9,779 nt of DNA from a virus (lineage: Duplodnaviria > Heunggongvirae > Uroviricota > Caudoviricetes): IMG/VR virus record IMGVR_UViG_2740892231_000007. One strand, 5' to 3'. Positions within the stretch are counted from its first letter, which is position 1, and each line of letters begins with the position of its first letter. Below, one piece after another: positions 6,001 to 9,000 of the stretch. The position numbers are program-made.

Positions 6001-9000
6001 GGACAATGAGGAATTGCACGAAAAACCCCCTGAACTCCTCACTTTTCAACGTATATATACCCCAAAAAGTGAGGAGCAAAAAAAATCCTTATGGAACATG
6101 CACATACAAAACACAAAAATCTCAAGTGAGACGAAGCGAGACGCTTTAAAAAGTGAGGCGTAAAAGTGAGCATGAGTGAGGAGATAACCAAAATGCGCAG
6201 AGACAGAACAGAGCCGAAATATAAAGCGTTAGACATGACAGAGCACGCCTTAAAGGTGGCAATCAGGGTAATAGACCGCCACGCGGGGGAAGGATACGCG
6301 AAGGAACATCCCGACCTGATAAGCGCATTCATGACCACGGCGGCGGCAAACTTTGCCACGCTGACAGAACGGGAGATTGCCGAAGCGGAACAGGTAACAA
6401 CCATCAACGTAAAAACCGGAGAGTCAGGCGATGATACATGACCGCATAGCGGAGGAACTCGAGGCGAAAGGATTTTACCGGAGGGCGGCGGCGCGATGGG
6501 GTGAAGTCATGCAGCTGGTGGAGACAGACAAGGAACGGCATCAGGTTACGATGCGACGGCTGGAATGTTCCAGGAAGGCACAGAGGCCACCGGAGCCGCC
6601 GGATAACTTCGGAGACCTGAGAAAGGCAGTCGATCGCACTTATGCTGAAATGGGTATAGATGGTGTAAGCGATGAAATATGGCGTAATTACCCAGACAGC
6701 TAATCAACAGCCGGAGAAATCCGGCTTTTTTGTAGGTACTCCTGGTGGGGGTGGCCTGTCCACGGGGCGGAGGGGCGCGGAAAAAGGCGCATTTTTTGAT
6801 TTTTATGGCACCATCACCACCACTATAAGTTATTGATATGTTGAGAAATAAAAATTTTTAGTGTCGAATCAGGTTGTTTTTTGTTCATCACCGGAACGTT
6901 CCCGAAAACATTTACAAAAAACAGGCGCAAAAAAAGCGCCCCCGATTGCTGTTACCGGAGGCGCTTTTACACGACAAAGGAGTTTTTATCGCCAGGATGA
7001 CGAGTCTTAATACTGCTTCAATGGCAAAAATGCGTCAATAACTTTGCCTTTCTGAGAATAATCAGAAAAATCATAATCTGATTTTCAGGTATAAAATGAT
7101 TTATCTATTACTTTTATCGATCAATAATGATGCCCGTTAATCAAAACGGAGGCGGATTTATGCCAGAGAACAACACCAGAAAGCCGGATAAAAGTGCCAC
7201 GGTACACATAGACGCCGGAACTATGGAGAAGATCGAACGCTATCAGCAGTTCATCAAAGATAATCACCCGGGTATGCCAGTACCCACGAAAGGACAAATC
7301 ACACGCAGCGCGGTTGAATATTGGTACAGGGCAACGTTAGGGGTCTGGCTATGAAAACATGGTTTTCCATTAAGGCTATGGCAGATGTTGTCTATGTGCG
7401 CATTTATGACGAGATCGGCGGGTACGGTGTAAAAGCATCGGCACTTACTGACGAGATCAACGCGTGTGGTAATGCGTCTGAAATCCATCTTCGCATCCAT
7501 TCACCTGGTGGCGACATCTTTGAAGGGCTGGCTATCTATAACGCCCTGAAAAATCATCCGGCAAAGAAAATTGTACACATTGAAGGCATGGCGGCTTCTA
7601 TGGCCTCGTTTATTGCCATGTGTGGCGATCACATCGTTATGCCTGAAAACGCGATGATGATGATACATGCCCCCCGTGGTGTTACTGCCGGAGTGTCGGG
7701 CGACGTTCGCCGCTTTGCTGACCTGATGGACAAGCTGGGCGACACGATGGCGGAAACCTACGCCGGAAGAACGGGCAGGAGCAAACAGGAAATCACCGCC
7801 ATGATGGAGGCGGAAACCTGGATGGATGGCAATGAGTGTAAGGCTAACGGCTTCGCAGATGAGGTTATACCCGCGATTACAGCAATGGCCCGAATTGAAT
7901 CAAAACGAATCGGAGATTTTTCAAATATGCCGGAAAAAATTAAAAGCATGATCAGCCAGAAAACTACCAGTGGCGAACAGGAACGACTTAACGGCATCCG
8001 TGAATTGTTTGGCACGTTCAACGGAAGATATAACGACCTGGCTATAAGTTGTCTTGCTGATTCAGAATGTAGCGTTGAGAATGCACGCGAACGCCTTTTA
8101 CTCGCTATGGGTAAAGAATCAACGCCAACAAACAAAACCACCCCCGCAAATCTTTACTACGCGTACACGGATAACGGCAACATAACCGGCGATGCAATGC
8201 GCCAGGGGCTTAATGCGCGTCTTGGTCACGAACGGGCCGAACGCGGTAATCCTTACGCCATGATGAGCCTTTTCGATATGGCACAGGCATCATTAACCCA
8301 TCGTGGTATAAGCACGGGCAGCTACAGCACACGCTCGCAGATAGTAAACGCGGCATTCACCCACAGCAGCAGCGATTTTACCGATATCCTTGCTGGTGGC
8401 GCTGAAAAATCAGTGCTTGCAGGCTGGGAGCACAGCGGCGAAACATTCCGCCAGTGGACGAAAAAAGGTTCCCTTTCAAACTTCCGGGAAGCCCGCCGCG
8501 TTGGTATGAATGGCTTCTCAACGTTAAACAAAGTGCCGGAAGGGGCAGAATATAAATACATCACCACCAGCGATCGCGGTGAACCCATCGCGCTGGCTAC
8601 TTACGGGAATATTTTCAGCATTACCCGCCAGGCTATAATCAATGATGACCTTGATCAGTTATCAACGGTGCCAATGGCTATGGGCCGTGCAGCATCAAGA
8701 ACGGTGGGAAATCTGGTTAATCTGGTGCTTACAGGCAACGTAAAACTTTCTGACGGAATAACGCTGTTTGACAAAAAACACAGCAACCTGATTGAAGCAG
8801 GACTGACAACACCGGGACTTAGTGCAGCACGTCACCTGATGCGCACACAGAAGGACAAAAATGGCGAAGTGCTGAATATTGCGCCTAAATTCCTTTTAGT
8901 TCCGGCAGCACTGGAAGATCGCGCGTTGCAGATGATTAACTCAACCGCACCTTTCGGGGCTGATAAAAACAGCGGGATCTTTAACCCGTATCACAAGCTA

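Follow-up and report, generated by a model that had tools for sequence, protein, structure and literature searches.

Two putative lambda-type cos sites of different TerS class flank the capsid unit of an EcCICFT073-like satellite island of Escherichia coli

The DNA considered here, called the window throughout, is the IMG/VR record IMGVR_UViG_2740892231_000007 in its full length of 9,779 nt, classified as a virus of the Caudoviricetes and, as its genes and their order indicate, a nearly whole small phage island of E. coli, that is, an EcCICFT073-like satellite of the Gram-negative phage-inducible chromosomal island (PICI) type. Our subject is a cassette that occurs twice in it, on the two sides of the capsid unit and each time directly behind a transcription terminator. 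For the reading that we develop below, the two copies are referred to as cos1 and cos2. The following genes and terminators lie at the locus.

1-1242: integrase (open reading frame (ORF) calling and Pfam).
1739-1945: AlpA-like ORF (ORF calling and Pfam).
4571-5980: primase/replicase, AAA_25 (ORF calling and Pfam).
6431-6703: PerC-family gene (ORF calling and Pfam).
Stem 6709-6726 and T6 6727-6732, plus strand: terminator 1, after the PerC-like gene and abutting cos1, -13.9 kcal/mol.
7127 or 7160 (alternative starts) to 7354, plus strand: small ORF of 64-75 aa, orf64 (phrog_4934, function unknown).
7351-9240, plus strand: fusion of a ClpP-like prohead protease with the major capsid protein.
7127..9240, plus strand: capsid unit, i.e. 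orf64 and the protease/capsid fusion, between cos1 and cos2.
9245..9268, plus strand: terminator 2, after the capsid gene and abutting cos2 (stem GGCGGC-ACCA-GCCGCC at 9247-9262, T6 at 9263-9268), -15.1 kcal/mol.
9498..9779, plus strand: orf93, 93 aa, the final gene of the island (phrog_1561, function unknown).

Between the protease/capsid fusion and its counterpart in helper-type phages the identity is 51%, which ties the island to the phage group whose terminase small subunit, TerS, is a DUF1441 protein. An 89% identity of orf93 to the final gene of EcCICFT073, together with the shared gene order, assigns the island to the EcCICFT073 family. The features by which a PICI is recognised are present: int, alpA, a primase/replicase, adjacent iteron-like repeats as a candidate origin, transcription in one direction, a size of about 10 kb and tqsA borders; in strain S19-651 the same island, with the same annotated genes, is bounded by fragments of chromosomal tqsA. 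No homologue of TerS, of the large terminase subunit TerL or of RppA was found in the window by tblastn, and orf64 and orf93 had no match in Pfam and fell only into function-unknown families of PHROGs, neither of them resembling a TerS-like or Rpp-like protein. A search of genome contigs for loci with orf93 returned a single Shigella locus.

Two segments of about 170 bp, 6734-6900 and 9271-9460, follow directly on the terminator hairpins and have sequence blocks in common. The pattern CTCCTGGTGGGG-NN-GGCCTG-NN-CACGGGGCGG occurs exactly twice in the window, at 6739-6770 and 9276-9307, both on the plus strand, and in none of 200 shuffles. According to alignment and a repeat finder the copies are about 85% identical over their first 90 nt or so, at a spacing of 2537, and weaker similarity continues further downstream, including TTTTTGTTC and TTTACAAAAAA. 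The first-pass annotation had described two strong intrinsic terminators followed, after exactly 7 nt, by the same ordered blocks and then by looser similarity, and had remarked on a conserved cassette behind unlike hairpins. All of this was borne out: both hairpins fold, each with T6 behind it, the blocks start 7 nt past the terminator ends at 6731 and 9268 in both copies, alignment recovers the downstream similarity, and the two hairpins are indeed different. A simple terminator scan picked up terminator 1 only, terminator 2 coming from folding. The 7-nt distance is correct, but it is not a spacer, since it holds most of the element that we read below as cosQ (AGGTACT in cos1, GGGTCCT in cos2).

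The position of this sequence in phage genomes points to its nature. With blastn, region 6700-6960 matched 3348 places in 2016 of 5426 complete E. coli genomes, at most 8 per genome. In two lambdoid prophages, one of them from O157:H7, the match falls between the lysis genes and a DUF1441 gene, behind which come TerL, portal and a protease-capsid fusion; DUF1441 corresponds to PHROG 141, terminase small subunit (E = 6e-69). As the gap between the lysis genes and TerS is the position of cos in lambda, we read the cassette as cos. About 70 phage loci have Rz at -260 and upstream, TerS at +160 or about +200, and then TerL. A widespread host repeat unrelated to satellites had been named beforehand as what would overturn the idea of a satellite element; the sequence is widespread, but it sits in helper-type prophages, and it is this that supplies the helper-phage link proposed earlier. 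A host intergenic repeat of the repetitive extragenic palindrome (REP) or enterobacterial repetitive intergenic consensus (ERIC) kind was ruled out, every inspected context being a prophage or a satellite.

We consider it very probable that each cassette is a complete lambda-type cos (cosQ-cosN-cosB), pirated by a PICI that has no terminase of its own, and that the two sites are separate acquisitions of different TerS class. The assignment is carried by sequence identity, position, lambda signatures and the co-variation of TerS with cosB, from which we infer the actual cutting. The predicted elements are as follows, with a slash at the predicted nick.

6734..6740, plus strand: cosQ position of cos1, AGGTACT (5/7 matches to the consensus GGGTCCT), 31 nt upstream of the predicted nick.
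6761..6780, plus strand: cosN of cos1, CACG/GGGCGGAGGGG CGCGG, left nick predicted at 6764/6765 by lambda homology.
6781..6900, plus strand: cosB of cos1, class A type.
6809-6823 (+45 to +59): R3-like element of cos1, CACCATCACCACCAC.
6826-6838, minus strand: exact IHF consensus of cos1.
6860-6870: R2-like element of cos1, AGTGTCGAATC.
6884-6894: R1-like element of cos1, TTCATCACCGG.
9271..9277, plus strand: cosQ of cos2, GGGTCCT, identical to lambda, 31 nt upstream of the predicted nick.
9298..9316, plus strand: cosN of cos2, CACG/GGGCGGGCGG CGCGG, left nick predicted at 9301/9302.
9317..9460, plus strand: cosB of cos2, class B type.
9343-9358: R3-like element of cos2, CGTCATCATCATCATG.
9398-9411: inverted R2-like element of cos2, GATGATGATTGTGG.
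9421-9430: R1-like element of cos2, GTTCGACATC.

The layout in lambda is GGGTCCT-N23-/GGGCGGCGACCT-CGCGG, with the nick context TTACG/GGGCGGCGACCT; that of the cassettes is GGGTCCT (cos2) or AGGTACT (cos1)-N24-/GGGCGG plus 4-5 nt-CGCGG. Shared with lambda cos, from the group of lambda, phage 21 and N15 packaging specificities, are the 7-bp cosQ GGGTCCT (exact in cos2), the nick context ACG/GGGCGG and the CGCGG right flank. The R3-like motifs, at +42 to +59, take the position of lambda R3, and inverted R2-like and R1-like motifs lie further right as putative TerS sites; CACCATCACCACC and CGTCATCATCATCAT are the candidate TerS-binding R3-like elements, and in every class A site an exact IHF consensus comes after the R3-like element. 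The putative R3-like, IHF and inverted R2-like elements stand at distances that match those in lambda. Unlike lambda, whose TerS is Nu1, the phages of the window type have a DUF1441 TerS; the R-element sequences differ, the distance from cosQ to the nick is 31 nt instead of 30 nt, and the overhang has a right half of other sequence and of varying length. Wieczorek and Feiss (Genetics 2001) reportedly defined cosQ as exactly 7 bp and found that the spacing between cosQ and cosN matters. According to the Feiss laboratory these 7 bp are highly conserved and without apparent natural variation (PMC4669245). The overhang of lambda-like cos sites has a conserved left and a variable right half, and the cassettes, showing the same division, fit this published rule (PMC4669245). 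A weak physical hint is given by the phage record mEp460_4F5 (LR595868.1), which begins 4 nt ahead of the predicted nick.

The second part of our reading, that the two sites are of different class, comes from a cos census made by a pattern scan of IMG/VR, which yielded at least 120 loci and 137 sites, the two of the window included; the sites were classed by their neighbouring genes. One of the loci, IMGVR_UViG_2534682157_000021 (9776 nt), is essentially identical to the window and counts as the window itself; the genome from which it comes has also a viral contig of 38 kb whose cos and TerS are of class A. In blast against a phage collection, the nearest phages of cos1 are 1720a-02 and the Shiga toxin (Stx) phage CP-1639, of Stx1 type (about 90% over about 168 nt), whereas those of cos2 are VT1-Sakai and several Stx2 phages (90-92% over about 170 nt). 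Each copy is nearer to a separate phage lineage than to the other copy, which rules out recent duplication of one site, as the first-pass annotation had argued; across cosB only, cos1 and cos2 are about 64% identical. The classes compare as follows.

Phage TerS class A (n = 30): R3-like element CACCATCACC in 29/30; cosB identity 75-79% to cos1 and 64-66% to cos2.
Phage TerS class B/C (n = 40): CATCATCATCAT type in 37/40; cosB identity 62-67% to cos1 and 81-86% to cos2.
Satellite cos1 (n = 25): A-type in 25/25; cosB identity 95-100% to cos1 and 63-65% to cos2.
Satellite cos2 (n = 16): B-type in 15/16; cosB identity 62-67% to cos1 and 89-100% to cos2.

The TerS proteins of classes A and B are identical at 56 of 91 positions in residues 1-91 and at all 67 in residues 92-158, and TerL is about 99% identical across most of the sampled phages of both classes. 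The consensus TerS of class A is found in CP-1639, that of class B in VT1-Sakai. For lambda and phage 21 it is known that specificity resides in the N-terminal DNA-binding domain of TerS and in cosB, and that cosN, cosQ and TerL are interchangeable (PMC4669245). A TerS difference confined to the N-terminal half and co-varying with cosB is the lambda/phage 21 pattern, with specificity in the TerS N-terminal half and cosB and with TerL, cosN and cosQ shared. By these sequence comparisons the cassettes are one cos of each TerS class, neither being a duplicate of the other. Helpers of either of the two Stx-type groups can probably package the island without a redirecting protein of the Rpp type, each site presumably serving its TerS class. 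The intact cos1-capsid-cos2 module is present in 143 of the 5426 complete E. coli genomes, class A cosB with its TerS in 226 and class B in 402. Both classes were found together in the O157:H7 strain TR01, and both circulate in Shiga-toxin-producing E. coli.

The module recurs in relatives of the island. Those with a different integrase (38% identical) and the same cos1-capsid-cos2 module, namely L113 joined with L017 (contig 2534681835_000014), L100 with L130, L053, L101 and L091, are inserted at about codon 337 of the helper TerL gene, in class A and in class B prophages, and correspond to the published helper-embedded PICIs (PMC10111431). In that work of the Williams laboratory a cos-like segment common to satellite and helper was reported, and two cos classes are not described there (PMC10111431). 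The island of the window has a different integrase, and its S19-651 relative sits in tqsA. Relatives of the EcCICFT073 type (L058, L043, L074, L110, L129, L015, L037 and others) have three cos sites, one of DUF1441/class B type after the PerC terminator and two of lambda type, of which one is direct and the other inverted. The direct lambda-type site stands just before an rppA homologue in several of these relatives, L058, L129 and L037 among them. Two further loci deserve a mention. IMGVR_UViG_2703718800_000016 (L063) is a relative without capsid gene, with int, alpA, primase, one cos (site at 6880) and orf93; this cos is chimeric, having in its left part the cos1-type hairpin and the overhang GGGCGGAGGGG and a cosB of class B, and it looks like the capsid module was deleted through recombination between two direct cos sites. 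Locus L081, with its site at 1460 on the minus strand, has a phage cos after Rz, followed by orf93 and the 3' half of TerL, which looks like a deletion between the helper cos and the cos2 of an embedded satellite, removing terS and the whole satellite.

EcCICFT073 itself, the model Gram-negative PICI, located at NC_004431 1377930-1388654 in the uropathogen CFT073, is the system to which the window has to be compared in the first place. It has two cos sites, each of which, on a plasmid, allows transfer by lambda and phage 80, and deletion of both abolishes transfer (Fillol-Salom et al. 2018, ISME J, PMC6092414). Through binding of its Rpp protein (c1503) the helper TerS is redirected to the private cosB of cos1 (2019, Mol Cell, PMC6739421), and the island is packaged as phage-length multimers (PMC6092414). 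We found its two sites in CFT073 with the motif ACGGGGCGG, both being of lambda type (GGGCGGCGACCT). Alike in the two islands are the gene order (int, alpA, Icd-like, DUF4222, primase, PerC, capsid gene, orf93), the two cos per island, the absence of terminase genes, and a cosQ and cosN close to those of the helper. They differ in arrangement, as the EcCICFT073 sites are about 750 bp apart, inverted, and flank the putative rppA, whereas those of the window are 2537 bp apart, direct, and flank the capsid gene. They differ also in what reads them: in EcCICFT073 the cosB is private and recognised by an Rpp-TerS heterodimer, whereas in the window both cosB regions are phage-like, of two classes, and no RppA homologue accompanies them, so that the redirecting trait is not seen here. 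Finally, the sites of the window are of the DUF1441-TerS phage type and those of EcCICFT073 of the lambda type. At its first position EcCICFT073 has the PerC terminator and no cos site after it.

The two sites of the window are not equal in their cosQ. Of 25 satellite islands about 18-19 carry AGGTACT at cos1, a variant absent from all 72 phage sites, while GGGTCCT is present in 70 of these 72 and in essentially all satellite cos2 sites. In lambda, initiation of packaging needs cosN and cosB, and termination needs cosQ and cosN independently of cosB (PMC4669245). Under these rules a cos1 with damaged cosQ should start packaging yet terminate poorly, which suggests that cos1 may be an initiation-only site. 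It would be logical to imagine the cycle in the following way. After induction of a lambdoid helper the island would excise and replicate into concatemers; the DUF1441-type TerS of the helper would bind the R-elements of cosB, and TerL would nick cosN, as predicted after 6764 and after 9301. DNA would then be packaged rightwards into heads built by the helper, until a later cos with working cosQ and cosN is reached. With cos1 terminating poorly, cos2 would be the main termination site, and a run begun at cos2 would pass cos1 and end at the next cos2, avoiding a 7.2-kb fragment without the capsid gene. We tentatively suggest, rating its chance a little short of even, that satellites collect cos sites as keys for the terminase specificities of their helpers, A and B in the window, B and two lambda-type sites in the relatives, and that the class A site has become initiation-only through its disabled cosQ, so that a run driven by a class B helper avoids the subgenomic capsid-less fragment.

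Several observations weigh against the reading of the cassettes as two working cos sites, or against the role given to cos1. Among phages with near-identical TerL the distance from the nick to CGCGG is 10, 11 or 12 nt, and for this variation we abandoned the derivation of overhang length from conserved flanks. In this island about 4 of the 12 overhang positions differ between cos1 and cos2, so mixed cos1/cos2 ends would anneal poorly, and the largest mismatch of cohesive ends demonstrated as tolerated is 2 of 12 (PMC4669245). In EcCICFT073 cos2 is dispensable, and its deletion even raised transfer (PMC6092414). The change in cosQ of cos1 could be decay rather than design. In the joined L113 and L017 (about 12260-12320), an island in a class A helper, cosQ of cos1 is intact (GGGTCCT), but the nick context reads ACG/AGGCGG, a G-to-A change at the first base of the overhang and a lesion unlike the usual AGGTACT. 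The census pattern kept the cosN core fixed. The islands of the sample are closely related to one another, for which reason the conservation of cos1 is weak evidence of selection.

The main rival takes up part of these points and explains the two cos as a by-product of modular recombination, with cos2 at work and cos1 a decaying relic. The lesions of cos1, AGGTACT in most islands and the G-to-A change in cosN of one relative, speak for it, as do the chimeric single cos of L063, which looks like a crossover of cos1 with cos2 and so shows that the direct repeats recombine, and the finding that deletion of a single site of EcCICFT073 left transfer unreduced (PMC6092414). Against it, all 25 of 25 islands have a cos1 with A-type cosB in which both the R3-like element and the IHF consensus are undamaged; only the termination element, dispensable for initiation, has lesions, and the A/B pairing is kept across different integrases, integration sites and both helper classes. 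We regard this explanation as unlikely, though the strongest of those that compete with the acquisition of two cos sites of different class.

Less probable still is that two cos sites adjust the packaged length, by offering more concatemer end points when the helper head is nearly full, or terminal redundancy. The phage-length multimers of EcCICFT073 do imply that terminase must skip cos sites (PMC6092414), but such a role leaves unexplained why the two cosB always differ in TerS class and why cos1 lost its cosQ, and mixed cos1/cos2 ends are not complementary in this island.

The terminator-plus-cassette module as such is a real and recurrent feature of satellites. All satellite sites examined have a GC hairpin abutting a T-run, with median energies of -12 to -13.6 kcal/mol, so the positional conservation behind terminators for which the first-pass annotation wished related islands to be checked is present in every examined satellite copy. 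Phage sites have instead, just left of cosQ, a conserved AT-rich dyad GATAACCATTATC with T5, of about -1 kcal/mol. The hairpin of cos1, GCCGGAGAAATCCGGCTTTTTT, recurs before cos1 of EcCICFT073 as an identical 22-nt hairpin with its T-run, despite an unrelated upstream gene. On the most economical reading the terminators end the upstream transcription units, and their T-run stands in for the phage T-run; homology to phage cos starting exactly at the T-run would then reflect compactness, or capture at T-run microhomology. It is possible that the terminators shield cos from transcription. In lambda, GATAATCATTATC lies left of cosQ (48440-48472), matching the place of the phage AT-rich dyad. Between cos1 and the small ORF, at 6917-6968, there is a further GC-rich hairpin with A-run and T-run flanks (GGCGCAAAAAAAGCGCC...GGAGGCGCTTTT), which scores as a minus-strand terminator and weakly resembles, below threshold, Rfam hairpins of the counter-transcribed RNA (ctRNA) type.

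Such a setting could also be taken for transcriptional control, and the first-pass annotation had proposed either that a late activator or helper-supplied factor binds the site and makes transcription resume past each terminator, or that the site is a target of the PerC-like or ribbon-helix-helix (RHH)-like proteins encoded beside it. In the form considered by us, the cassette would be a promoter or activator site for the PerC-like protein, orf64 or a helper late factor. It is true that some promoter has to serve orf64 with the capsid gene, and orf93, that just ahead of cos1 lies the end of a PerC-family activator gene, and that all satellite copies, unlike the phage ones, follow a strong terminator; a promoter must exist between each terminator and the next gene. 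Neither proposal is supported: the conserved blocks are the cosQ and cosN signatures of lambda, the sequence is at the cos position in more than 70 lambdoid phages that have neither PerC nor orf64 nearby, its variable part follows the TerS class, and EcCICFT073 has PerC and the same terminator with no cassette behind. A promoter scan found no sigma-70-like promoter on the plus strand of either cassette region; its sole match in these regions lies inside cos2 on the minus strand, and overall there were fewer matches than expected from shuffles. We hold a role in transcription for very improbable. A structured RNA, such as a put-like antitermination element or a small RNA after the terminator, is the least credible explanation of all. 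The place directly after terminators and the GC-rich small local hairpins (e.g. GCGC-N8-GCGC followed by a T-run) speak for it; against it, the conserved positions are those of the lambda protein-DNA site, and neither a stable transcript of defined length nor compensatory changes across the 137 sites were seen. The candidate was rejected on shuffle-level folding of the cassettes (z = -0.8 and +0.4) and on an Rfam search of the whole window, with E up to 10, that returned weak chance matches only, all outside the cassettes, which upholds the earlier view that no shared RNA fold is present and that selection acts on a DNA-level site.

Some features elsewhere in the window may be recorded. Directly after the primase/replicase, at 5975-6170, there are three direct repeats of about 27 nt, CTnTAAAAAGTGAGGCGnAAAAGTGAG, spaced by about 85 nt and with an inverted copy between, an arrangement that resembles origin iterons and may mark where the island replicates from. 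At 2980-3060 and 2259-2320 there are a near-perfect inverted repeat, ACTGGAATCCAGTATA / TATACTGGAATCCAGT, around promoter-like hexamers and, in the divergent regulatory region, the direct repeat TGTGTATTGACAC; both look like operators of a regulatory switch of the island. A run of ten G at 3798-3807, inside a 174-aa ORF (3519-4043), is a possible tract for slippage or frameshift.

Among other satellites, the cos-type Staphylococcus aureus pathogenicity islands (SaPI) SaPIbov5 and SaPIbov4 likewise have, in place of a terminase gene, the helper's cos in a copy of their own, and in addition a capsid-protein homologue. They are, however, Gram-positive, unrelated in sequence, and dependent on HNH for cos packaging. 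To our knowledge, dual specificity has not been described for them. Two putative cos sites were reported for SaPIbov4, as far as the citation of that work in PMC6092414 goes.

The choice of cos decides which DNA a phage packages and, hence, which helpers can spread a satellite. That an E. coli PICI may have two functional cos sites is already published, with the reason for two left open; one site per TerS class, the usual cosQ defect of cos1 and the relatives with three sites are, as far as the searched literature shows, undescribed. The pairing of one site with each TerS class would be a concrete and testable explanation, namely a wider helper range without Rpp. Our survey also yields naturally occurring TerS/cosB pairs, matched and with identical TerL, useful for the study of packaging specificity, and we suggest that, wherever an enterobacterial island has a terminator followed by a conserved GC-rich block with ACGGGGCGG, a cos site should be assumed. 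It flags Stx phages as likely mobilisers of these islands, and, if satellites do collect cos sites as keys, Stx phages of two packaging classes would be helpers of one and the same island.

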